Positions 6,595-56,081 of a stretch of 56,081 nt of DNA are shown here, piece by piece. Source of the DNA: Diploschistes diacapsis (taxonomy: Eukaryota); the NCBI GenBank assembly GCA_023645945.1, contig JALAIB010000005.1, forward strand, positions 1 through 56,081, written 5' to 3'. The position numbers and the translations under genes were made by a program. Every line of letters begins with the position of its first letter. Positions within the stretch are counted from its first letter, which is position 1. The notes beneath the pieces are model-generated. The model saw only the letters and a program-made list of their open reading frames with translations. It was not told where the DNA came from and did not search any database.

Positions 6595-9500
6595 CAACAA
6601 CACAGGCAATTTATTCTTAATAGTAGCGTATCCTTCACCATAATTTATTTTTGTTATAGATTTAAACCCTTTTAAAGTTCACCATGGTAAGCCTTTTGGA
6701 AATCTTCTTTACTTACAGATTCAGATAAAGCATTATTAAATTTTATAGTGGTTTTATTATCTTTATCTTCTATACAATATGTTTTATTACCTAAAAAATA
6801 AGCCTCTTTAATGTTATGCACCAATTTGAATTTTCCTATTTCATTACCAACCAAGTCATTGTTTAACGGTTTATCTGTGACAATGTTATCTATATCGCTA
6901 TAATATATTTTACCTCCATTACGAAGAATATTTAATTTTACTTTGTTCATGTATACTCTTGCGTATGCTGTCACAGCAGAACTTATAGCAACTGAAACAC
7001 TCTTTAAGTTTTCTTGCAAGAAAACGTCCTTAGCGTCACTGTTTTTTAATAGATTTAGTTGTGTTTCTTTATAATCAACTTTATGATCTTCACATATATC
7101 TGCGGATATACTTGCTTCATATGTTACAAGTAATTTGTCATTTATATATTTTACATCACCTACTATTTTTCTAGTCTGTAATATTTCCTGGTATTCTTCA
7201 TTAGTTACTAATCTAGTTATAGATTTGTTTAGATTCATACCGAACCTACCTATTAAACTATTTAAAAATAATTTAGCTATATTCTTTTCTACTGTGTTTT
7301 TAGCATTAGATTTAATACTATAAAAATTATCTACGTACTTTGTAAATACGTCGTATGATCTATCAAAGTTATACCCATGTAATACATATATTTTATACCC
7401 TTCTTCATATGCAAATTTTAACTCTTCACTAAAATATCAACCTTTAATACAACCAATTGGGTTATATATACTTTTTTCTGAAAACTTTGTTGGTATTAGC
7501 CCTAAGTAGTCGTCAGTAGTCTGTATTTCACAGTAGTAAAAACCAAATAAATTATCTTTACAGTCTTGTATGCTCTTATTTATTGTGCTTACGTAAGTAC
7601 AATTTAATCCAGGCATAGGGTTTAATGCTGCATACGGGTATAGCGAATTCACGTCATAATCATATAAATCCTTTCCGTGTGGTATATATACTTCCACTAT
7701 TCCCCCATAATAACTTTCTTTTATATCGCTGTAAACAGATTTTTTATTTATTAAAGGTATATTATTTTGATAGAATTTCTTTAAATATATAGCCATAGCT
7801 AGACTTGATATTGTATAATAATCTTTTACTTCTACACCATAATATGTACGTATGTACTCCATAAAAATCTTCATTATTTCATATAGACTTTTCAAATCAC
7901 CCTCTAAATACTTTATTGTTTCATCTTTAGTATTTCAGTTCTTAACTCTCTGTTCTTCTCCCATCATTGCGTCATCAAGATCTATACCAATGTTTTCATA
8001 CTCCTCTGCACTTATATTATCAAAATAGTGTTTACCAGGCTTTACACCACTATAGAAAAGCGTTTTATCACTTACAAATTCATAAGGAAACAGACCTTTT
8101 ATAACACTCGGCTTATATCTTTCACAAAGTTCAGATAATTTATTTGTCAAAATATTATAAGAGTCTACTATTTTAATTTTGTATCTTTTCTTATATGTTT
8201 TATTGGGATCTTTACCTTTGTAATAAAACGTCTTTCAAACTACTAAACATATAATTTTACCATCTCTAACAATAGGTTCATATTGATAAACATCAGGATT
8301 TTTTTCACATAAAGAAACTACAATACGTAGTAAGAAAGCTACGTCAAATTTGGCAAAGTTATGTACATAGAAAACATAATTATTATATGTTTATTTAAGC
8401 ATATCATTAAGACAATTTATTATTATCGCGTCTGAATCTAAAGACTGATCTATATAAGAAGTTTTTATTCCAAAAAGGTCTCTTTGTTCAGGATCAGCAT
8501 AAAAACCTGTCGTATAAACTTTTAATATATTATCTTTATTAAGATACATTTCAAAATCAAGAGTACCAAATTTATAAATAGCGTCACCTTTTTTTAAAGC
8601 TGTTTTAGGGTTTATAGACTTAAACTGCTGACAAATCTCTTTAGCAACTAGTTCATTTTTTATAAAGTATAAAGTTACATTTCCTGTTGTTCTATAAAAA
8701 CTATCTTGATCTTGTTTTTCATCTACTACACTACTTCTTTTATCTCCGTCTACGTAGTATATATCAATTTCGTTTACGTCAGGTAAGATGCTTTTCACAG
8801 TAGTTATCATAATATTATCTTTATCCATAGATTCATAAAAATCTACATCTCTTGTAAAACCTTTAAAATCCTCATAATAATCCTTTACACGCTCAGCGAA
8901 ATTTATTCTTTCACTACTTTTAAGTATTATATACTTTACTAGTCCATCTACTACAACTTTTTCTAATTTTACTCCAAAATGATTAATATCTGATGTTATA
9001 GGTAAAAAACTTAAACTAGTATTTAGTTTAGATACATTAACTAAATCTTTATGCTGTTTTAAAGGTACTGAGAGTTTCTTACGTTTTACTATAGTATCCG
9101 TGTAATATACTCTTGAAAAGATAAATTGAATACCTATAACTTGATTATACTGAATATCATATTTTTCTAGCGTATCAAGCAATCTATTAGACACCTTTAA
9201 TAAAATATTTTCCATCTTTAAAAATAAACTATTTTTATCCCTATATTGAAAAAAGAATTGGTGTCCTAAAGTTTTTCATTCTGTAACAGATCAATTATTA
9301 CTTTTACTAGTTGTTTCTATTTTATATTGTATTCTTAATAACAAGGAGTACCTTGTGTCTATATCACATTTTACAAAATAATCATACACCAAAGCTTTAT
9401 CATCTAGAGAATCTGGACTAAGATAAAAGATGTTTTCTCTAACCCTTTTTCCAATAGAAGCGACAGAAGAGACATACCGAGTGAAAAGTCGATTTTTTTT

Positions 9501-9599
9501 TTTTATGTTAAATATCATAGAATTAATTATTATTAAATAAAAGGACGTTAAAACATTAGATTTAGGCCCTAACAGCCACCGGATAAGCATAAAAGCCAA
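6595..9599 (-). pseudogene. dpoB: Linear-plasmid-type (protein-primed) family B DNA polymerase, decayed
   Basis: One frame with TGA=Trp: ExoI TLDFEMY, ExoII FYVHNFAKFD, motif A YDVNSLYP, motif B KLFLNSLIGRFGM, motif C altered to YSDIDN; internal TAA at 8391-8393; frameshift or truncation near 6672. Confidence 0.92.
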
Positions 9600-10152
9600 A
9601 CTTTCTCAGCGTTTTCCACCCAGTATAGAAAAAATTTGCTTATTGATTTTACATTCCAAAAAGGTCCTCTTCTCTATATCGTACCGCTTTTTAAATCTAT
9701 ATAACCCGTTGACCTTTTTGGGATACAAGGAGTCATTTAAAAACAAAGGATACGGAAGGATTAGAACAACATTGTGAGGAAGCTTATAATAGGGGTAATA
9801 TGTTTGAGGAGGAACGTGAAAAGATGGTAAAGGGGTCCATAAAGGAAGAAAACGAATGGATGCGTAAATGTGCTGAATGTCACAATAGTGATAATATTTT
9901 ATCTCAAGAAGCTTCTGAAAAGCAAAAAGAGCAATAATTTTTAGTATTATGCTGATCCCAACCTAGAACAACTTAGTTATAGGAATCTCTAGGATTAATT
10001 TTGATATATACCAGATATAAGTATAGTCATTTAGTGATAATTTATCTAAATACATTTGGTACCTATTGAACCCTTGACACTCTATTATATTTAACAGTAA
10101 AGTTAAGCCTGGTACAGTGTAAATATAACTACTGTATTCTTAATTTAGTAAA

Positions 10153-27246: not shown

Positions 27247-28844
27247 TTATGTAATTAGATAAGGGTTGTTTAAAGTTGGAATATTTTTACTTAGTACTCA
27301 ATCAATTGTAGGTATTTTATATTCAATACTTTCATAGATAAAAGTTCTTTTATCTGCTATTCATTCTATATCATCACCATATGCATTTAATATAGATTCT
27401 ATGATATTTTTATCAAATGTTCTTAGATAAGGTTCATCTGAGTATAATTTTTCATATACACTTTTCAACAATGATATTAATGACCCCATTTTGTCCGCAG
27501 TTGTAGCAAAACAATCGTGTATTGCATAGAAACTATAGTTATATTGATACTCTTTTTTAAATGATAAAAATAATAATGTAAGTGCTGAAGCATCCAGTGA
27601 ATGAATTAAATTAGGCATAAGAGCAACACATTGTTTTCATTTGTCGTATACATTAGAAACACTTCTAGTTAAATTTAATGTAGTTCTACTATAACTAAAA
27701 GGTTTAATTTTTACAGTTTCTGATTTTAAGTAACTTTGAGTTACTAATAAACCACTCCCTGAATTTAAAACTATAGGTAGATTTAAAATATTGTGAATCT
27801 CTGCTACAGTTGTTAAGTAATCTCTTAACTTTTTAATATTTTCAAAGTCTACATTTATTATAGTCATAATAGTTTTAACTAAGACTGTAACATCCTTATT
27901 ATTAATTTTACTACTATTTTTAATATATCATACCATTTTTTTATCGTCTACTCCTGTATCTTCATATTATTTATCATAATTAGATAAAGAATCCTTAATA
28001 TACAATTCCATAGAATATCTTGTTGCATTATATGGAATAGTCATTATAACACTTTTAATATCGCTACGTTCTCAGACAAACTCATATAGTCTTGAGTAAT
28101 TTTCATGATAAGCGTCTGATGTATCACCCAATTTTGATTTTAATATATCAATTAACCTTATTATAATATAATTGTAAAAATCATTTGGTTGTTTATCTTT
28201 GTCAGATGTATTTAAGTTAACAATATCATATAACTTAGTTTCATGAGATAATAGAGATAAGTGTTGGAAACCGTTACAACTAGCGTCTAATTGTATAGGT
28301 AAAGATGTTTTAAATTCATTAGTATTAAAATCTTTTAAACAATCATAATATTTTTTTAATTCTAGACAAAAAGCCAGGAATAGATGCTTATTTTTAGCGT
28401 TTTGTAGTAAACCACTTTCTTCAAAATTATAAATTTTATCTTTATTATCTTCTACTCAGGATATTATTTTCACATATGATTTTTTATCTAGACCATTACC
28501 ATAACAATTAGCACCATATATATATAGATAGTTTATTTGATTTTTATTATCTTTATGAATTGTTGATTCATTGCTAAATAATAATAAACTTTTAGATAAA
28601 TCATTACTTTGGTAATTAAAATAATCGGGTACACAATATACTCTACCTCTATTATCTAATCTAACAGGAAAATATATTCTATATAGATTTATATATATAT
28701 TCGCTATGTTTAATATATTAAATTCTAGTACATACTTACTCATTTCAGATTTATATTTTTTCTCAAAATAGCTTGAAGATCATTTATTTAACTTGACATC
28801 AAAATTCTCTTTTTTTATATTTTCTATCTGCTTTTCATCAATAA
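27247..28844 (-). pseudogene. rpo: Plasmid-type single-subunit (T7-like) RNA polymerase, C-terminal half
   Basis: FPVRLDNRGRVY, PIQLDASCNGFQH, RSDIKSVIMTIPYN, PNLIHSLDAS, AIHDCF in one frame; internal TAA at 27967-27969. Confidence 0.92.
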
Positions 28845-28917
28845 GAGACTTTAATTTAATAGGTAAAATATATGACTTTTAATCATTATAATAGGGGTTC
28901 GAGTCCCTTAGGTCTTA
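28845..28917 (+). tRNA. trnK: tRNA-Lys(UUU)
   Basis: GAGACTT/AGGTCTT acceptor, CTTTTAA loop. Confidence 0.88.
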
Positions 28918-33297: not shown

Positions 33298-33579
33298 CCT
33301 TTTCTTTTCAGTTTTTGGATATTATTACTATATAGGCTACAGTTCTGAGCTTTACATTAAAAAAAAATAACAGATTTTTATAATAATTTCTTATAATGTT
33401 GGCTGTATATTGTGTTGTATTTATATATTGTTGCTTTAAAATAAAACCTTAGCCATTTACATAATAATTATATAATCTGGTTTTTATGTTTAAACTCCCT
33501 TTTTGGAGATAATTTCGATTTTATGCTACAATAGTGTTTTATTAAAATACTCTTATAATTTTTTTTTTAATTTGTTTTT

Positions 33580-34269
33580 ATGGGTCCAATATACCTTATT
33601 GTTGAAGGCTTTCTAAGTGGTTTAAGTGCTTTATCTTTAGTTTTACTTACCATTTCTTCTATTCTTTTTGGTGTTTTTGTTATAATAGGTAAAAATCCTA
33701 TAGTTTCTGTTCTATTCCTAATAGGGTTGTTTGTTAGTATAGCATTGTATTTAATATTTATTGGTGTCAATTTTATAGGTATAGCCTATTTATTGGTCTA
33801 TGTAGGAGCCGTTTCCATATTATTTCTTTTTATACTTATGTTAATTAATATAAGAATTTCTGAGCTATTAAGTGATAGTAAAAATAGTATATTATTAGTA
33901 CTTTTAATAGGGTTATTTTTTACTGGTACAATAATTGATATAATACCTATTCAACTTATAAGTAAATATTTTGATATTATAGAAAATACAATCTTTTTTA
34001 CTTGTTTATATTATTGAGAAAGTAATATTGTATGATTGGGTAATATATTAAGTATAGGTAGCATTCTGTATACTAGTTACAGCATATGATTAGTGTTAGC
34101 TTCAATTATATTACTATTAGCCATGGTGGGTGCTATAGTTATTACAATTAAGGATAAAGATTTATATTCTAGCATAATTAGTAAAGAGTATAATTTAACT
34201 ACATTGAATAGTAAAGTTATACCTACAATTGATTTAAATATTGGATTAGATCCAAATCAAAACCTGTAG
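33580..34269 (+). CDS. nad6: NADH dehydrogenase subunit 6
   Basis: KNPIVSVLFLI, YLLVYVGAVSILFLFILML, IILLLAMVGAIVIT; TAG at 34267-34269. Confidence 0.95.
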
Positions 34270-34386
34270 GATGCTCCCAGATCTTTTAATAAAGATCTAA
34301 TAAATCATGCTTTTAAAGATCCAAGTCAAAATCTGATGGATGCTCCCAGATCTTTTAATCCAGATCTAATAAACAATGCTTTTAAA
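34249..34386 (+). repeat. 69-bp tandem duplication at the nad6/orphan ORF junction
   Basis: GATCCAA.TCAAAA.CTG[TAG/ATG]GATGCTCCCAGATCTTTTAAT..AGATCTAATAAA..ATGCTTTTAAA, two copies. Confidence 0.9.
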
Positions 34387-35547
34387 AATCCTATAAAATC
34401 TACACCATCTAATGAGTCTATCCAGTCTTCTTTAGATTGTATTAAAAATATGCAAGAAAAATGTAATACATTTAAACCTGCAAGATGTTTAACTACTGAC
34501 AATGTAAGTGAGGCAACGGACTATGTAAATAATACTCTAACGCTTTTCCATAGTTATTACCAAGTAATTGATTATAGATATTTAGAATATATAAGTATGA
34601 TGAAATTATATCTACTAATTTTCGTTTTACTTGTTTCTTTTTTTTTACCTATTCTTACTAGAGCATTTGACGGCCTATGCAACATATTGATGGATATTAT
34701 AAGAAGATTGGTCCGTTCAATTATGTTAATATTAAATAGAGTGTATCCTATTCTCTTGAGAATACTAAATAGAATACTAAATAGAATGCTAAATAGATTA
34801 ATGAGAGGTTATCGATTAATTCAACGTTTACCTAGAGTACCTCCTCTTCTAACGCAAAATAGAAATATCTTTGGAAGAATAGCTGTTAGACTAAGATGAT
34901 ATTATGGATTATGAAGAGTGCGAGTGGCTGTAAACTATTGAACAGAAAGGAATCGTGTTATGTTTGTGGATAATTTACTGAATAGTTATCCTGGAACGTA
35001 TGGCGAGCTAGGAATGCTGATAAGAGCTAGCGGTTATAACCCTACAAGAGAACAAGCTAGAATTTTATTTGATAGTGATGGCTTGAGGAATTATCGTAAC
35101 TATTTAATGACCTATAGACGTATACCATGAGGATTAGAACCATTTAATTTCTCGCCACAGATAATTCGTACTCAACGGGGGCTACTGCCAACCTACACAA
35201 GGCTATTAGATATTTTAAATAGCATTACTCGTCAAGCAGTGAGTAATCAGCTATTACAAGCTGAAAATATTGCTCTAAATATAGAACAATATGCCGTATT
35301 ACGTCATGAAATGGCAGTAAGTCGTAGAGTTGTGAACTCTAATGTAGATCTTTATATGTTTGTAACAGGTGGTTATTGAACAGCGGATAATAGTTATGTT
35401 CTGCCCGCAGAGGATGTACTGACATTATTAAGCGAATTGCAAACCCTGCAAGATTTTTGACTACTATATGTAGAATATTTAAGAGCAAAAATTGCATTTA
35501 TGATTGCTCTTGAGAGAACAAGAAGATCAACATCATGATGATTTTAG
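34336..35547 (+). CDS. Orphan 403-aa ORF in frame with nad6 (one TM helix, Arg-rich amphipathic segment)
   Basis: Uninterrupted with TGA=Trp from ATG 34336 to TAG 35545-35547. Confidence 0.75.
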
Positions 35548-35725
35548 GTTTATAGTTTTTATTCCTAACTATAGCTACAAACCTCAATTAAACTGTAACG
35601 GTAAAAGTATAAATATCATATAAAGCCCAGGAATACTGTGTGGCTAAAACATACCCAAATAAAATACAATCTAGTATACTTATATAGCGATACTATAATA
35701 AACTATAATTTAATCTAACAATTAA

Positions 35726-38700
35726 ATGAGAATATTTAAAAGCCATCCCTTATTGAAACTGATAAATTCCTATTTAGTAGATTCACCTCAACCAAGTAAC
35801 CTAAGTTATTTATGAAATTTTGGATCTCTTTTAGCGTTTTGTTTAGTTATACAAATAATAACAGGTGTAACATTAGCAATGCATTACAACCCTAACGTAC
35901 TAGAAGCATTTAATTCAGTGGAACATATTATGCGTGATGTAAATAACGGATGATTAATACGTTATCTACATTCTAACACTGCTTCTGCATTCTTTTTCTT
36001 AGTATATCTACATATAGGTAGAGGATTATACTACGGATCCTACAAAGCACCAAGAACTTTAGTTTGAACAATAGGAACAGTATTATTTATATTAATGATG
36101 GCTAAAAATAAATGGCCAAATTGAATGTTAACTTATCATACTAAAATCAGTCAAAAAAAATCTTATACAAGTTTTAGTAAACAAAGAACTAAAGCATTAT
36201 ACAGAGTAGGACCGCACGACAAATAAGTATTATCTATAATTATATGCGGTATGTTAGGGGATTGATGATCAGATAAAATAAAAGGTCAAATATCTCCTAG
36301 TGTAAGATTTAATATAGAACAAGGTCTGAATAATACTGCTTATATACATAATCTAACTCTTTATTTCAATAAAAAAGGTTACTGCTCCGCTCCAATATAA
36401 GTCCTAAGCTTGTAAAAAAACAGTTAAATGGTAAGGAACATTGATTTAATTATAGATTAACATTATTTTCTTTCACTTCTTTATTCTGGATACATGATTC
36501 TTTTTACAAACAAGTTAATGGTATTAAAATAAAAGTGGTTCCTAATTGAATAGGTGAGTATTTAACTCCTATAGGATTAGTTCATTGAATAATGCAAGAT
36601 GGTTCAAGACAAACTAAACAAGGTATAAGTATTGCAACTAATAATTTTGTTTACAATGAATGTGTGTTTTTATGTAATATATTAAAAGAAAAATACAATC
36701 TTAAATGTACAGTAATTAAAGCGGGTCACGTTAATCAATGAAAAATAAGTATTTGAAAACAAAGCATGCCTGATTTAACTGCAATAGTTAGACCTTATAT
36801 AATTAATGAAATGAAGTATAAGTTTATTGATTATATTTAAATCGCGACATTTACATAGCGCGAGGTATGAAGTTAAAAATCAAAGTCCATTTCTAATTAG
36901 AGTATATGCAATATGTATTTAAAAATATACTTTGTAATAATAAATTACTAAGAAATAGTATATCCTGACAGGGATATAGGATAATAAAGCTTATTATCTG
37001 GCAATGCTGATGAAAACGGTTAAAGACTTCATATTTAAGTTAAGACCGTCGGTCAAATACATGATCGCTACAGACTGGGTCATCGGTGGGTGACTGAAAT
37101 GTTGCTTAATGTACAGTCGGAGACTTCTATAACAAATTTGTTATACATAAGGCTTCAAGTGATGTATATTATAAAGAAATAAAGCAAATTTTGGGGACTA
37201 ATATACTGATGAAGTACAGGGGCAATTATTTAAATATGATTAGAATGATTAGCCGAAGTTTTGACTGCTTTCCTGGGTTATACATATGGCCCAACATGAT
37301 TTAATTTTATAATTATAGTAAAACACATTATAAATTCAGAAAAAACAATATCTTTATAATAGCTTGTTTCACAACGTTTTTAGGTAATACAAGTCTAATA
37401 TTATTTTATCTTGATGGTTACAAATTATCTTTATGTAACTATATTAAATATATACAATTATTTTTTTCAATAGCTTTATTTTTTTCTTTTTTTTTTTAAT
37501 TATATATTTTACATTAGATGAAATTAAAAAGCTAGATTTAGTATGTAACATAAAAGATGAAAGGGTTAACTTACATGGACATGTTAATGTTACGCACGAA
37601 GCAGCTAAATAAATATCAAAAGGTATGAGCACTATAGGTAGTCAAATAGGATTAGGTGCTTCTATGGTGGGGGTTAGTACTGCAATAGGTAAAGCTATAG
37701 CAAAATCTGGTCTGCCTCCTCTGCAAAAAGCAGTAATAATAGCAGGAGGATCTTTAATAGGAGGTTACGGTCATTCTATATTTAGTGCTATTAATAGAAA
37801 TAGTGCTAATATAGAAAATAAATCTATAAATTCTAATATATCTAAATTTATTGACGACTCTTCATTAAGTCCTTTAGAAACAAGAATATATGATATACAA
37901 GGTATAAGTATAACTTGTTTAGGTTTACTATTCATACTAACTATACAAATAGGTTTTAAATTATATCTTAAAGAAAACATAAAGTTAAATTTAGGTATCA
38001 AGTTAAATAATACTTTATAATATTACATAAATAAAAGAATTAATTTAAACAAAAAAATGAGCGTAATATATATATATAATATTAGTTATATTAACAATAG
38101 GATTGTTTTTATTGGTTTATGCTAGTTCATAATTCTTAAATAATTTAGATAGTTATATAATAAATTACAGACAAATAAAGTAATGTTTTTAACAAATAAA
38201 TTAACTTACTAATTTAAAGAAAAATTTTGCTAAACAAAATAGAAATTATAGCCATAAGTATTCTGAGGATGGTTTATTCTCTGAATTTATAAAAGAAAAC
38301 AATATAAAACCTTTACAAATTTATCCAGATTTACATCTAGATGAAACAATAAAGTTGATATCTAATAAACCTAAGGATATTAGTGGAGTTTATCTTATAT
38401 ATAATAATATAACAGGTCATTATAGGGTCAGCATATACAAATAGGTTTTATGCAAGGTTTGCTAATCATTTATTATATTTTAGAGGAAGTAAATTACTAA
38501 AACATGCAGAAAAAAAAATATAAACTTTATAGTTTTATATTTGCAATATTAGAATTATTTCCAGAGAAAGTTACTAAAGAAAATAACAAGTTTTTATTAG
38601 ATAGAGGATTTATATTTGAAATCTTTACTACCTGATTACAAAATATTAACTTAAGCTGGTTCTAGTTTTGGATATAAACATACTTAAATAACTCTATAAA

Positions 38701-41700
38701 AATGAAAAACAATTATAGTGTAGAACGACGTAACTTCAGAAGTAATTTCAATAAAGGCAAAAAATTGTCTAAATAAACCTTATAAAAACTAAAAGATAAA
38801 AGTTTAAATAGAAAAAAGATAACTTACACTAAAAAAAGTTTATTAGCTATGAAGAAAAGATCTAAAGCTATAATATTATACAATTTAGATAGAACTGTGT
38901 ATGGTTATTTTAATAGTATAACAGAAGCAGCAAATATTATAAATTGTGGTGATAAAACAATAAGAAGAGCTTTAAAGACTGATAAAAAGATATTAAAAGG
39001 AAAGTATATTGTAAATTATAATAAAGAATTAAATTATAGTCCCATGAGTTTAAATTTCTATGCAATTTTTATAAAAAAATAGAAATAAAGTGGAACAGTA
39101 TGACAGTACTGTTGAAAAAAAAAATAGATTAATTTGTTTTTTTGGCGATGTTAGTGAAAACGGTTAACTATTATGATAAAGACCGTCGGTTATATAAATG
39201 ATCGCTACAGACTGGGTCACTAATGGGTGACTGAAATGTTGCTTAATGTACAGTCGGAACTTTTAGCTATAAAGCTAATAGAATATACGAATTCAAAGTT
39301 ATTCTAGCTTAATTTATATTATTTCTTAAGTAAGTTTGTATGTATTACCATATGGTCAAATGTCACTATGAGGTTTTATTGTAATGCCTCAAATGTATGT
39401 TTTATATTCTATTCTATTTATATCTTTCCAATTTATTGGTTATTCAGAAAAGTTGACTAGACTTAAAGGTATATACAGAGTAGGGCCTCACAATAAAGAT
39501 GTTGTATGTATTATATTTGGGTCTCTGTTAGGAGATGCTCACGCTGAAAAAAGACAACAAGGTAATGGAACTAGAGTTACTTTCTACCAAGAACATTCTC
39601 ATGTTGAATATATGTTTTATTTACATAATTTATTATCTAACTTAGGATATTGTAAACCAAAACAACCTACAGTAGGAACAAGATTGGGTATTAAAGGTAA
39701 AGTAAGAAAAACAGTGAGATTTGCAACTTGAGCTTATACTAGCTTTAATTGAATACATGATTTATGATATAAAGATGGTATAAAAATTGTACCTGAGTGT
39801 ATAAGTTATTATTTAACTCCCTTAGCTTTGGCTATCTGGATTATGGATGACGGAGCTAAAGTTGGTAAAGGTTTAAAGTTTTCTACAAATTCTTATAGTT
39901 ACACAGATTGTTTAACTCTTGTAAGCGCCTTAAATGCCAACTTCAGTATTAAAAGTACAATACAAAGTGCAGGTTCTGAAAATCAATATATTATATATAT
40001 TTGAAAAGAATCTATGGATAATTTAAGAAATATAGTGTATCCTTATATTATACCTGAAATGAGATATAAAATAGATTAAAAATATAATATAATAACATAC
40101 ATAGTTATATAGCTACTTTTGTAAAAAGCGTTAGTATAAATAAAGCAATATTTACTTAAAATTTATTTAGACCGCTATATAGCAACATCTATGAAAACGG
40201 TCAATAATGTTTGTTTAGCATCGAGACCGTCGGTATAGTAAAATATCGCTACAGACTGGTCCATAGATGGGTGTCTGAAATATTTATCAAAATTGATAAC
40301 TAATTATGATGCTTAATGTACAGTCGGGTTTTTCCATACTATTAAGATCGTAATAGTATGCACAAGACAATATAGACAATTATACTGCGTAGTAGTATAT
40401 ATATTGAACATGGTTTACCTATTTTAAACATTTTAGATTTAAATAATTCTAAAAGTCTTATAGGCACAGTATAGGTAAATTGAAAAAGTGGCAACAGTTA
40501 TAACTAACCTTATGAGTGCTATACCGTGAGTAGGACAAGATATAGTAGAGTCAATAAAAGATATAAAATAAAATTTATGTTAGTAAAATCTATATTACCC
40601 ACAATAGGTAATATAAACAAAAATGGGTAAAAAAAAGTAAAAAATTTAAGACTAGACAAAAAAGAATACACCCCCCCCATCTTTTATAGCACTATTAGTT
40701 GGTATCATAGATGGTGATGGTTACATTGAAAGAACTAAACCTACTAAAGGGTTCATAACTATTAAACTTGTTATTTTAGTACATTTGGAGGATATTTATA
40801 CATTGGAATATATACATTCTATTTTAAAGATAGGTATTATATCTATATATAAGGATAATAGAAGTCCTACTTGTAAGTTAATATTTAATAAAACTGACTT
40901 ATAAGAAGTATTATTTCCGTTGTTTATATATCATAAAACATATTTTATTACTAACACTGGAAAGGACCAATTCAATCTAGCTATGTATATATTTAAAAAT
41001 GATATAAAATTATATAAACAAATTTCTAATAAACAAGATATACCCGCAGGTTTTGAACTATGTAAAACACCATTAGATTACACAAAGTTATCTAAAAATG
41101 AATAGTAGGGTTTACAGTTTCTGAAGGTTCTTTTTTTGTTATAAGCTTTGAAAATAATATTTAATACAAATAGAAAGATAGATAATCAAAACGAATTATA
41201 TAATCAGTTTAGTGTAAGTTCTAAATTAGATATAGAAACCGTTATGGATTTTTTTTTTCTTACTCCTTCGGAAGGGCTTACATCCTTTAATAGGTTAAAA
41301 AAACGTACAATATCTAAAGTGATTAGAGCTTTTACGTAATAGTTACCGCTATAAAAGTCTTAATTTTCCTAACAATTTATCAGAAAGTTTTACTACACAT
41401 AATTTATTTAAAATGGGCTCCTTAGAATAGTAATATTCTATAGGCAAATGGGGAGAATTGCAAAAACACCCTACTATATTCCACCGTTTATAGGGTTATT
41501 TGCATCGGAGCTTAATTCGGTACTATTTAATAAAATTATTAAATGAATTAAGAACGTTCAACGACTAACGAGTGAGTAATACCAACAATAAGCTCGACAC
41601 GAAAACCCCACAACAAAGTTTTTTGGTTGAAGACATAGTCTAAACATTAGATAAACTAATGAAAATAAGCATTAAAAACTTATAAAATTTTTGTCATATG

Positions 41701-42346
41701 AGGTGGATTTTCAGTAAACAATGCGACATTAAACAGATTTTTTGCATTACATTTTGTGTTACCTTTTGTATTAGCTGCATTAGCTTTAATGCATCTAATA
41801 GCCTTACATGATAGTGCGGGTTCAGGTAACCCAGTAGGTGTATCAGGTAACTACGACAGATTACCTTTTGCTCCTTACTTTATATTTAAGGATTTAATAA
41901 CAATATTTTTATTTATACTGTTATTGTCTATTTTTGTATTTTTTATGCCTAATATATTAGGTGATAGTGAAAATTATGTAATGGCTAATCCTATGCAAAC
42001 ACCACCTGCTATAGTACCTGAGTGGTATCTTTTACCGTTTTACGCTATCTTAAGATCTATACCTAACAAATTAGTTGGTGTTATAGCTATGTTTTCAGCT
42101 ATATTAATATTATTAGCTATGCCACTTACAGATTTATCAAGATCAAGAGGTATACAATTTAGACCTTTAAGTAAAGTAGCATTTTATGTTTTTATAGGTA
42201 ATTTCCTAATATTAATGCAATTAGGTGCTAAACACGTGGAGTCTCCTTTTATAGAATTCGGTCAAATATCAACAGTATTATATTTTGCTCATTTTTTAAT
42301 AATAGTACCCTTTATTAGTTTATTAGAAAATAGTTTAATAGAATTA
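35726..42346 (+). CDS. cob: Apocytochrome b; exons 35726-36103, 37264-37278, 39339-39374, 40491-40551, 41694 to ~42346; no stop, continues into cox2
   Basis: [47 protein letters not shown]. Confidence 0.96.
36104..37263 (+). mobile_element. cob intron 1 (position 378, group ID) with LAGLIDADG pseudogene 36104-36840
   Basis: ID core GACCGTCGG..ATCGCTACAGACTGGGTCA..GCTTAATGTACAGTCG; RVGPH..ICGMLGD and WIMQDG; TAA at 36224 and a frameshift near 36395. Confidence 0.88.
37279..39338 (+). mobile_element. cob intron 2 (position 393, group ID) with a decayed membrane-protein ORF (~37300-38180) and a GIY-YIG pseudogene (~38183-39082)
   Basis: ID core near 39150-39258; [52 protein letters not shown]. 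Confidence 0.88.
39375..40490 (+). mobile_element. cob intron 3 (position 429, group ID) with intact in-frame LAGLIDADG ORF 39375-40079
   Basis: FGSLLGDAH and [11 protein letters not shown] core 40190-40327. Confidence 0.9.
40552..41693 (+). mobile_element. cob intron 4 (position 490, group IA-like) with degenerate LAGLIDADG
   Basis: [10 protein letters not shown] and [10 protein letters not shown] remnants with stops and frameshifts; GTTCAACGACTA, AAGACATAGTCT. Confidence 0.85.
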
Positions 42347-44263
42347 CCAGAACTAGAACAAGATGACACAGTATTTTCTAGCTATAATTACTCATATCTA
42401 ACTAGCCGAATAAACTTGTTATCAATTATTCCGGTTTTATCTTTATTTGGATATAGTCAATCTAAAGATTATTGTGATACACCTAGACCTTGAGGTTTAT
42501 ATTTCCAGGATAGTGCCACACCACAAATGGAAGGTTTAGTGGAATTACACGACAATATTTTATTTTATTTAGTAATAATTTTATTTGCAGTTGGTTGAAT
42601 ATTATTTTCAATAGTTAGAACTTACACTAACACACTTTCACCTATTTCACATAAATATTTAAATCACGGTACGTTAATAGAATTAATCTGAACTATTACG
42701 CCCGCATTAATCTTGATATTAATAGCTTTCCCCTCCTTTAAACTGTTATATTTAATGGACGAAATAAGTGATCCGGCTATGTCAGTTTTAGCAGAGGGTT
42801 ATTTTTTAAGTGGCCCTAAATCGTATATATTAAATAAAATAGAAGACACCTATGTAGTAGGTAAAAGAAATAATATTGTTAAAAAAATAATTTTTAAGCG
42901 AATGTTCCATACTAGAATAAAAGCTGCATCTAGAATAGGTCCACACAACCTGGATGTTGTTTCAGTTATATTTGGTTCATTATTAGGTGACTGTTATGCG
43001 AGTAAGAGATCAATAGAAGGTACAAGACTTTGCTATAGACAAAGTCTTGTACATAGTGCTTATTTGTTTTGATTATATAACTTTTTCTTTACTAGAGGTT
43101 ATTGTTCTAATTTAAATCCTAGAATGTACAAAAGAGTCTTAAAAAATAAAGATAGTGGTGATAAGACTCATTATGGTTATGAATTTAATACTTATACTTT
43201 TAGAAGTTTTAATTGAATCCATAAAATGTTTTATAAAAAAGGAAAAAAATATATTAACACAGATATAGTTAAATATATAACACCTTTAGCTTTAGCTATT
43301 TGAATTTCAGATGACGGAGGTTGAGCCAAACCTGGTGTAAGTATAGCTACAAATAGTTTTAAATTAAAAGAAGTGGAATTTTTGTTGGAAGTTCTTGAAA
43401 GTAAATTTGCTTTAAGTTGTACTATTCAAATCTTAAAACCTTCTGGTAATTATAATATTTATATTAAAAGAAGCTCAATCCCCAAATTAAGAGTATTAAT
43501 TTTACCCTTTTTGCATCCATCTATGTATTATAAATTAGGATTAAAAAAACAATAAATTTTCTAGAGTTAATTTTTTATAATATTAAAGTTCTTCTAACCC
43601 CCCCTTCATATATACGATAGTCGAGAGATAAACAGTGTATTTATCTCTAAGTTTCCGACAGGATTCTTAGAGAAAAGATTTAATCTTTTCTCTGGCGACA
43701 CGAGTGAAAACAGTTAAAATATTATTATTACATTCAATATCCCACGAAAAGTGGTTGATAATAATACAAGACTGTCAGTAAATAGTTTATTTTCTTTTTT
43801 ATTTATTGCAACAGACTGGGTCACTTGTGGGTGTCAATTTTTGTTGATGCTTAATGTACAGTCGATGAGGCACCAATGATATTGAAGTTACCAGTATCCT
43901 GACTTTTTAAATAGTGATGATGACTTTATCGAATTTGATTCTTATCTTGTACCGGAATCAGATCTAGAACAAGGAACTTTAAGAATGTTAGAAGTAGATA
44001 ATAGAGTTATTTTGCCTGAATTAACACATATTAGAATTATTGTTACTGCAGCTGATGTTATACATTCCTTTGCATGTCCTGCATTAGGGATTAAATGTGA
44101 TGCATACCCTGGTAGATTAAGCCAAGTTTCTGTTTTAGTTAATAGAGAGGGTACATTTTACGGACAATGTTCGGAACTTTGCGGTATATTACATAGTTCT
44201 ATGCCAATAGTTATAGAATCCGTATCCATAGATAAATTTTTAGCTTGATTAGAAGAACAATAA
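42347..44263 (+). CDS. cox2: Cytochrome c oxidase subunit 2; mature N-terminus DTPRPW at 42476; exons to 42799 and 43871-44263; no ATG of its own
   Basis: [52 protein letters not shown]. Confidence 0.96.
42800..43870 (+). mobile_element. cox2 group ID intron with intact in-frame LAGLIDADG ORF 42800-43555
   Basis: [24 protein letters not shown]; core CAGACTGGGTCA..GCTTAATGTACAGTCG. Confidence 0.9.
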
Positions 44264-44322
44264 TACAATATCATTTTTATTAATATTGTAAATACTACTT
44301 TTAGACTTAAAATTTGAGTCTA

Positions 44323-44394
44323 GGGATATTGGCAGATTGGTTATGTAGTTGATTGCAGATCAAAAAAAATAAGGTTCAAATCCTTAATATCCCT
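44323..44394 (+). tRNA. trnC: tRNA-Cys(GCA)
   Basis: GGGATAT/ATATCCC acceptor, TTGCAGA loop. Confidence 0.85.
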
Positions 44395-44395
44395 T

Positions 44396-45579
44396 TTATG
44401 TAAGACTATCAATTAATATACAATAACTGTCTGATATAGTTAACTTGTGTTTATCCTTGCTAATAGTAATTCTAATTGTTTCATCATTTAACAGATAACC
44501 ACCTAAGGATTGTTTTGAATAATCTTTTGGTTCGCATATCATAAGTAATTTACTTGGTAAAGTAAAAATATCACTACTGTTCTTGGGACGTGCTACAGAA
44601 TTTTCAGGAACAAACAGAACATAATGCTTTTCATAAGAAGATGTACTATCAGTATTAGCTACTAACTTTTTCTTAATCATTTCACAATGCTCCAGTATTT
44701 CAATAATTTTACCACCTAACTCAGCATAATAATCATCTTCCACTAAAATAGATAAATCTATATTATTTTCGTTTAACATGGTAAGTCATGATCTGTAGGT
44801 GATTTCTTTACCTGTATGCTTGATGTGTGCGTTTTTTAAATGATTCATATATCTATTAAACATTTTTTTACCTATCTTAATACAAACATTTAACATATTA
44901 TAATACTTATCACTAGCAGAATTTGTATTTTGGTATGTATAAACTAATATAAAATGTAATAAAGATAAATTATACATAAAATCAACACCAATCATGTTAA
45001 CAATGTTATTAGTTAAAATTGCTTTGTCTTTAACTACTTTAGATCTAATTTTTTTATTAACAGCTTGTTCGGATCCAGCCAATAGTTTGCTTAAACTATT
45101 TTTTAATAAAAACTCCTTACTTATAATAAAATTAGTTTAACTACCACTTAGATACTGAGTATTTACACCACCTACCATATAATTTTTACTGCTGTTACTG
45201 AAAATAACATCAAATTGGTCTAAAATTAAAGATTCTATAGTCTTTTAAATTCTTCATTATAAGCAAATCTATCTTGATTTGTTAATAAAGTAATTTGGTT
45301 AGTTAAATGAGAAAGAAACTTAGATGTATGTTTATTTTCAGATATACTATCTGTGTTATTATTATTTTCAGATCCTGAATTGTATAACACTAACTCTTTA
45401 GTATTAGACTTTGTACTAGTAGAAAAAGGGTAAAACTGTACAGAATTATCGCTAGCCTTACCAAAGTAAGAGAATAACCGAATAAAAACAGGTAAGTGAG
45501 TAGTACCGTAGCCATAACAGAAAACTGGTAAACGAATTCTAGTTATATTATTGTTGTTGTTTTTCATTATTTTCTGCAT
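44396..45579 (-). pseudogene. rpo: Plasmid-type RNA polymerase, N-terminal part, frameshifted
   Basis: LGGKIIEILEHCEMI and KLLMICEPKDY...LGGYLLND, typical of mitochondrial plasmid RNA polymerases. Confidence 0.8.

Positions 45580-55810: not shown

Positions 55811-56081
<271 letters not shown>

Follow-up and report, generated by a model that had tools for sequence, protein, structure and literature searches.

In the window analysed here, the 56,081-nucleotide contig JALAIB010000005.1 of Diploschistes diacapsis, the mitochondrial gene for cytochrome b of respiratory complex III (cob) has no stop codon and lies on the same strand and in the same frame as the gene for Cox2 of complex IV (cox2), directly downstream, which in turn has no ATG of its own at the junction. 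I propose that the product is probably a Cob-Cox2 polyprotein, in which the linker between the two parts would serve as an internal signal-anchor and the cut would fall at the usual Cox2 maturation site. The fusion itself is not new, a head-to-tail fusion of cob and cox2 having first been reported in 2020 in Umbilicaria (Lasallia) pustulata (Greshake Tzovaras et al., Genome Biol Evol, PMC7186782).

Mitochondria normally control the synthesis of respiratory subunits one by one. When a large group of fungi keeps core subunits of complexes III and IV in one frame, the two would have to be made in equal amounts, and a route for separating them would be needed. The comparison with relatives predicts a cut after the Cys codon at 42473-42475, a membrane-crossing linker with a charge bias that is positive on the matrix side, and a free spacer intolerant of stops.

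A single reading frame through cob and cox2

The window is an AT-rich fungal mitochondrial genome (28.6% G+C), read with genetic code 4 and carrying a transfer RNA (tRNA) with anticodon UCA, for TGA (ARAGORN); both of its ends fall inside cox1. The parts of the fused gene, the intron in cox2 and the first tRNA 3' of the gene are listed below, residue numbers being those of the intronless relative P0124 and ORF standing for open reading frame.

35726..36103, + strand: cob exon 1, with Met start, residues 1-126 (tblastn, 96% identity; Pfam Cytochrome_B)
37264..37281 (approximate), + strand: cob micro-exon of about 18 bases, TAFLGY, residues 127-132 (single match in a three-frame motif scan of 36000-39500)
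39342..39374 (approximate), + strand: cob exon 3 (translation); an intron with a LAGLIDADG ORF comes next
40491..40556 (3' boundary to within a few bases), + strand: cob exon 4 (tblastn of residues 144-165; translation)
41696..42346 (5' boundary to within a few bases), + strand: last cob exon, ending ...LLENSLIEL, stopless (translation, Pfam, tblastn)
42347..42409, + strand: linker part 1, 21 acidic or polar codons with Arg last (42407-42409), predicted to lie on the matrix side
42410..42454, + strand: hydrophobic stretch of the linker, 15 codons, predicted to cross from matrix to intermembrane space (Kyte-Doolittle 15-residue mean 1.82)
42455..42475, + strand: linker end, 7 codons, ...Asp-Tyr-Cys; cleavage predicted between 42475 and 42476
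42476..42799, + strand: cox2 exon 1, mature N-terminus and both transmembrane helices, to ...VLAEG (Pfam COX2_TM)
42800..43870, + strand: cox2 intron, with a LAGLIDADG ORF in frame with exon 1 and a stop at 43553-43555 (Pfam LAGLIDADG_2)
43871..44263, + strand: cox2 exon 2, HQWYW... to ...LAWLEEQ, with the stop at 44261-44263 (Pfam COX2 periplasmic domain; tblastn)
44322..44395, + strand: tRNA-Cys (ARAGORN; Rfam RF00005)

The micro-exon sits between two long introns and was missed by tblastn. At the other end of the gene, intron-less relatives in sequencing run X1 depart from the window at 42792/42798, into HQWYW..., which fits the end assigned to cox2 exon 1, and tRNA-Cys is likely the 3' processing point of the fused transcript.

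Translated with table 4, positions 41687-43558 form a single open frame (the stop-to-stop ORF of the junction being 41669-43552), and this one ORF carries the Pfam domains Cytochrom_B_C (residues 106-206 of the ORF), COX2_TM (272-359) and LAGLIDADG_2 (432-607). The linker, 42347-42475, comprises 43 codons with not one TAA, TAG or ATG among them, while each of its remaining five frames holds 3-5 stops; it directly precedes the D-x-P-x-P-W-G motif with which mature Cox2 (DTPRPWGLYFQD...) starts at 42476. An earlier note on this DNA, made from the sequence alone, had described a cob without stop, a cox2 without ATG and a Met-free linker of 43 codons with a hydrophobic segment. Code 4 translation upholds the first two claims, and both the linker and its hydrophobic segment are found at the positions listed above.

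The same note had named an assembly error hiding a stop codon as one of the things that would undo the reading. The linker is crossed by a contig of run X1 (record 8, 42140-43000) with two other letters and no gap, by two contigs of run X2 (records 13 and 14) with no difference, and by a contig of run X3 (record 22, 42310-43000) with one other letter and no gap. It is thus free of indels in contigs from three runs and three studies, one of which may be the origin of the window sequence itself; a fourth run, X4, gives depth in every bin, in pieces too short to bridge the linker. An assembly error at the junction is very unlikely. The stretch occurs in rock, lichen and glacier-forefield metagenomes.

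Along the same line, it is barely credible that the fusion is an artefact or a dead copy, be it through a hidden stop, a pseudogene or a nuclear copy. In support of such a view one could cite a related locus that looks degenerate (L006, see below) and the modest odds against a single open frame: 1261 of 20000 mononucleotide shuffles of the 129-base linker (6.3%) are stop-free, so that the open frame of one genome is only mildly unlikely, and the weight therefore rests on the comparison with relatives. Yet the contigs of the three runs agree, cob and cox2 are both complete, strongly conserved and the sole copies in the window (where tblastn finds no further copy of the cob 3' end or of the cox2 5' end), and the fusion is common to more than 150 relatives.

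The fusion among relatives

Relatives were sought with a 233-residue piece of the junction. Cytochrome b and COX2 domains occur together in 20 of the best 120 length-matched matches and, among longer proteins, in nearly all of the best 120 of 1154 matches. A cob anchor and the mature Cox2 N-terminus lie in one ORF in 152 of 364 fetched proteins, with 141 distinct linkers, a set biased by its collection in that stop-bearing lineages appear as separate proteins and go uncounted, so that no fused fraction for lichen fungi can be derived from it. Complete intron-less ORFs of 640-700 residues, with the Cob initiator Met at one end and the Cox2 C-terminus at the other, number 44. Of 80 metagenome loci, 11 hold both genes and nine of these are fused (L001-L007, L009, L010). 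The one-frame arrangement is found well beyond the window, and the cob-cox2 fusion is widespread in lichen fungi.

The closest relatives of the window are P0121 (100% identical), P0124 and P0125 (89-90% over the junction) and P0128. Against named Cox2 sequences, the identity of fused proteins reaches 98% (Lecanora cinereofusca) and 95% (Gomphillus americanus). On a weakly supported tree the fused label (157 rows) needs eight changes, against a mean of 63.4 when labels are shuffled, and none of 500 shuffles goes as low; the tree, obtained by a quick search on 108 columns with most of its forks open, shows that the fused label is clustered, not that it arose once. On this same weak tree all five named lichen anchors stand among fused rows and the unfused rows group with named Leotiomycetes, the window standing among the fused sequences together with the named Acanthothecis and Gomphillus Cox2.

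The unfused state has a regular form. Ordinary unfused Cob proteins terminate 6-15 residues past ENSLxEL, and the unfused Cox2 leader is 13 residues long, of the type M-L-N-L-L-...-N-N-C, ahead of the same Asp. Loci with cox2 only have an in-frame stop upstream, and in most of them the Asp is preceded by a Met at a distance of 10-15 codons (mode 13). Three cox2 loci (L021, L026, L027) are cox1-cox2 fusions of the Pleosporales type.

Judged from protein entries set against near-identical (P0004, P0203) or close relatives, deposited lichen records seem to start cox2, or to end cob, inside one shared frame. A case in point is the UniRef Cox2 of Pertusaria propinqua, whose start Met falls within the linker of the fused P0004, the sequence being otherwise the same; another is the Cob of Gyalideopsis ozarkensis, which ends ...PENIQQ exactly where the identical sequence in the fused P0203 reads on. 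UniRef entries from Lecanora have Cox2 'leaders' of two residues. The named UniRef entries concerned are P0084, P0282, P0077, P0091 and P0097.

In one fused copy, at 2501-3259 of L006, many otherwise invariant residues are replaced and Cox2 helix 1 is one codon short through a deletion. This copy could be in decay, of nuclear location or badly assembled. The database holds other fusions at the 3' end of cob as well, namely a cob-to-cox1 ORF (P0350) and a cob tail matching COX3 in Pfam (P0343), besides a Cob family with a long hydrophilic C-terminal extension (P0263, P0303, P0325, P0326, P0337, P0358).

Anatomy and evolution of the linker

Past ENSL the linkers of the 152 fused proteins measure 39-750 residues (median 61) and are mostly unalignable to each other, which means that each change of length preserved the frame. 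That of the window resembles those of its closest relatives P0124 and P0125 only, with no clear likeness to the other linkers examined. The 141 distinct linkers amount to 12220 stop-free codons, a chance of 10^-340 at 0.062 per codon on the assumption, which does not hold, that the lineages are independent.

Met is absent from 48 of the 152 linkers altogether and from the last 40 residues of 72, and where a last Met exists its position is scattered. What recurs is a 15-residue hydrophobic window (Kyte-Doolittle of at least 1.6) within the last 45 residues, present in 147 of 152. Directly before the Asp of mature Cox2, 133 of the 141 distinct linkers have Cys (112), Asn (12) or Ser (9) at position -1; 82 of the 141 have Tyr or His at -2, and 78 have Glu or Asp at -3. 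Net charge is positive over the 12 residues upstream of the hydrophobic stretch (K+R 1.29, D+E 0.48) and negative in the downstream flank (K+R 0.51, D+E 1.04); of 136 linkers, 107 are more positive upstream than downstream, 19 have equal flanks and 10 are less positive upstream. This bias is the one expected if the upstream flank stays in the matrix. In the window the order of parts is that of a signal peptide with its n, h and c regions: Arg at 42407-42409, a core of 15 residues and a tail of seven.

In the one DNA pair that gives a trustworthy ratio of nonsynonymous to synonymous substitution rates (dN/dS), L001/L005, the value is 0.77 in the linker, 0.05 in cob and 0.075 in cox2, and each of the three gap runs is a whole number of codons. 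Two further pairs were dropped, L002/L006 for the many replacements at invariant sites in L006 and L007/L009 for an unreliable alignment of the linker; L009 and L010 are nearly identical, with one difference in the aligned part. Taken together, the comparison fits a spacer that would be nearly free in sequence but never permitted a stop or a frameshift.

Linkers tend to start like an old Cob tail (IELA..., IELP...) and to end like an old Cox2 leader, which suggests that the fusion originated through loss of the cob stop and of the cox2 ATG. The ancestral state would have been a cob-cox2 adjacency whose former spacer came to be read through, the two ends of the linker descending from the old tail of Cob and the old leader of Cox2. 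Some linkers of about 180-750 residues, which have long low-complexity acidic or Gly-rich runs, also contain degenerate extra copies, in P0122, P0123 and P0186 of the cox2 N-terminal region and in P0126 of the cob C-terminal region; growth of the linker by local duplication seems likely.

Other roles for the interval were tried and rejected. A small intron within the linker is rejected because 129 nucleotides are too short for a group I or group II intron and Rfam gives no match. A tRNA-like punctuation element is unsupported by either ARAGORN or Rfam: ARAGORN finds no tRNA between cob and cox2, and Rfam, run on 35500-44500, returned tRNA-Cys only, downstream of the gene. A processing hairpin is rejected since the linker RNA folds no more stably than its shuffles (z = -0.19). 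An AlphaFold2 model of P0124 built on a 40-row alignment was poor (mean predicted local distance difference test score 37, predicted template modelling score 0.21), and the helix it draws in the linker at residues 405-420 is not usable as evidence.

Proposed separation of the two proteins

Cytochrome b has eight helices with both ends in the matrix. The N-terminus of Cox2 lies in the intermembrane space, and yeast pre-Cox2 is cut by the inner membrane peptidase subunit Imp1 before its Asp. A chain that passes from one protein into the other would thus have to cross the inner membrane once more, and it is from the open frame, its conservation and the anatomy of the linker that I infer translation through the linker, the topology of the chain, and the site and enzyme of cleavage. 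One messenger RNA (mRNA) would start at the cob ATG (35726), lose five introns and be translated into a single Cob-linker-Cox2 polyprotein. Cytochrome b would end on the matrix side, where the first 21 residues of the linker would remain, and the 15-residue stretch at 42410-42454 would then span the inner membrane from matrix to intermembrane space as an internal signal-anchor, putting the Cox2 N-tail in its proper place. The cut would follow the conserved ...Asp-Tyr-Cys (Cys 42473-42475), ahead of Asp 42476, and the enzyme would most likely be the inner membrane peptidase (Imp1/Imp2), which matures ordinary Cox2. The products would be mature Cox2 and a Cob with a C-terminal tail, either kept or trimmed.

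Co-translation, a cut before D-x-P and a hydrophobic segment carrying the chain back to the intermembrane space had all been put forward in the earlier note. This is the account best supported by the comparative data, it fits the transcript of U. pustulata described below, and it should be read as probable.

Several points weigh against it. At classical signal peptidase sites positions -1 and -3 are small and uncharged, a rule from which the window departs with Asp at -3, as do the relatives with Glu or Asp there; yeast Cox2 has Asn at -1, versus Cys here; and a hydrophobic stretch of 15 residues is short for a stable membrane helix. Two metagenome loci, L008 and L016, have cob adjoining cox2 yet unfused: cob stops 9-14 codons past ENSL, several in-frame stops follow, and cox2 of L016 has its own ATG 13 codons upstream of the Asp. 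To these must be added the three limits given above, that is, the 6.3% of shuffles that are stop-free, the dN/dS that comes from one pair, and the biased collection of the fused set. Finally, codons that table 4 permits as starts lie within the linker (ATA 42410, TTG 42416, TTA 42419, ATT 42425/42428), and published annotations of Xanthoparmelia (TTA) and Cladonia subulata (GTG) assume non-ATG starts for cox2.

These last points lend themselves to a different account, by which two proteins are translated separately: the transcript would be cut in the linker, or initiation would be internal, Cox2 would start at a non-ATG codon with a leader of about 20 residues, and the stopless cob mRNA would be released by a rescue factor. 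Non-ATG starts of cox2 do occur, about nine unfused relatives having Val (GTG) in place of Met at -13. I nonetheless regard separate translation as unlikely. It gives no reason for an open frame between cob and the supposed start, where a stop would be harmless or helpful, and there are zero stops in 141 distinct linkers, with all length changes in frame. No start-like residue is conserved in its position, and the linker has nothing that would mark it for processing, be it a tRNA, an Rfam element or a stable fold. Fungal mitochondria, moreover, are not known to complete stop codons by polyadenylation. In U. pustulata a Trinity transcript is reported to span the fusion with the frame uninterrupted (PMC7186782).

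Alternatively, the fusion protein might be made and stay uncut, Cob and Cox2 being covalently tied within a supercomplex of complexes III and IV. An open and conserved frame is what such a protein calls for, and the sequence data give no direct sign of cleavage. This seems improbable all the same: the junction retains the normal residues of Cox2 maturation, with a Cys/Asn-Asp boundary as in unfused leaders; a linker of anything from 39 to 750 residues is ill-suited to a fixed structural tether; and the cox1-cox2 ORF of Acanthamoeba, a case cited in PMC5626475, yields two proteins.

A wider claim can be advanced tentatively, and I would not put it at better than even. Across lichen fungi the linker may act as an internal cleavable signal-anchor that crosses from matrix to intermembrane space and is cut by the inner membrane peptidase after [Glu/Asp]-[Tyr/His]-Cys. 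Cox2 would then be made strictly 1:1 with cytochrome b under the translational control of cob, a cox2-specific translational activator and the export of a free N-tail would be dispensable, and Cob would have, at least transiently, a ninth membrane helix.

Other features of the mitochondrial genome

Upstream of the fused gene, nad6 (33571-34266, + strand) is followed, after a single stop, by a same-frame ORF of 425 residues (34270-35544, + strand), which is Arg-rich with a hydrophobic middle and has no Pfam match. Genes of linear-plasmid type are integrated at 6675-9962 (- strand) and 27250-28878 (- strand); they comprise an ORF for a family-B DNA polymerase (PF03175), preceded by a 523-residue ORF that matches no family, and an RNA polymerase (PF00940) split by a stop into two ORFs. 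At the end of the window, directly after a piece of cox1 exon, the hexamer GGTACA is repeated at least 22 times in tandem (55948-56081). Since both window ends fall within cox1, it is probably at this repeat that the circle was opened.

Comparison with known systems

The search of the literature on cob-cox2 fusion found only PMC7186782 and its preprint. That paper also mentions a cob-cox2 fusion in Usnea ceratina and leaves open by what mechanism Cob and Cox2 are separated. A 2026 Lecanora paper describes a conserved cob-cox2 adjacency, with the fusion unmentioned. The fusion described for U. pustulata is like that of the window in its two genes, their order and strand, and in a stopless cob within one open frame; the window differs in its short linker of 43 codons and in a fused gene broken by five introns. 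The junction of the window is best read as an instance of this fusion, known from lichen-forming fungi of Lecanoromycete type.

A second relation is to the cox1-cox2 fusions of Pleosporales, the precedent that the earlier note had invoked, and correctly so: a fused ORF is known from Stemphylium lycopersici, Didymella pinodes and Parastagonospora nodorum, with Acanthamoeba and Dictyostelium cited besides (PMC5626475). In these, too, Cox2 is downstream, in one frame with an inner-membrane subunit whose C-terminus is in the matrix, and a hydrophobic leader ends in Cys before D-A-P-R-P-W-G (P0033, P0044, L021, L026, L027). The partner, however, is Cox1, of the same complex, whereas in the window it is cytochrome b (Pfam), of complex III; the cox1-cox2 fusions belong to other fungal classes and have independent origins, and the gene of the window would work alike without being a member of that group.

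Fusion across the two complexes has a counterpart in the dinoflagellate Oxyrrhis marina, where cob is fused to cox3 (review PMC5029500). There, as here, a complex III gene is joined to a complex IV gene in a mitochondrial genome, but the partner is cox3, the stop codon arises by oligoadenylation, and there is no relation by descent.

As for maturation, the window can be set beside ordinary fungal pre-Cox2, processed in yeast by Imp1/Imp2 with Cox20. The two share the mature N-terminus and have similar residues at the end of the leader; the leader of the window differs in being internal and without initiator Met, in having all of Cob ahead of it and in its longer hydrophobic core. Where a leader of the inner membrane peptidase type has an initiator Met and 10-15 residues, as the unfused loci do with their Met at -10 to -15, the window has 43 codons and no Met.

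A parallel to the model as a whole is bacterial. In Bradyrhizobium, fbcH encodes a polyprotein of cytochromes b and c1 that is split at an internal signal peptide by leader peptidase. Its partner protein, cytochrome c1, is of the same complex, and its cutting enzyme is a leader peptidase, unlike what is proposed for the window; it does combine in one ORF a cytochrome b, an internal signal sequence and a subunit of the outer side, just as the proposed Cob-Cox2 polyprotein would.

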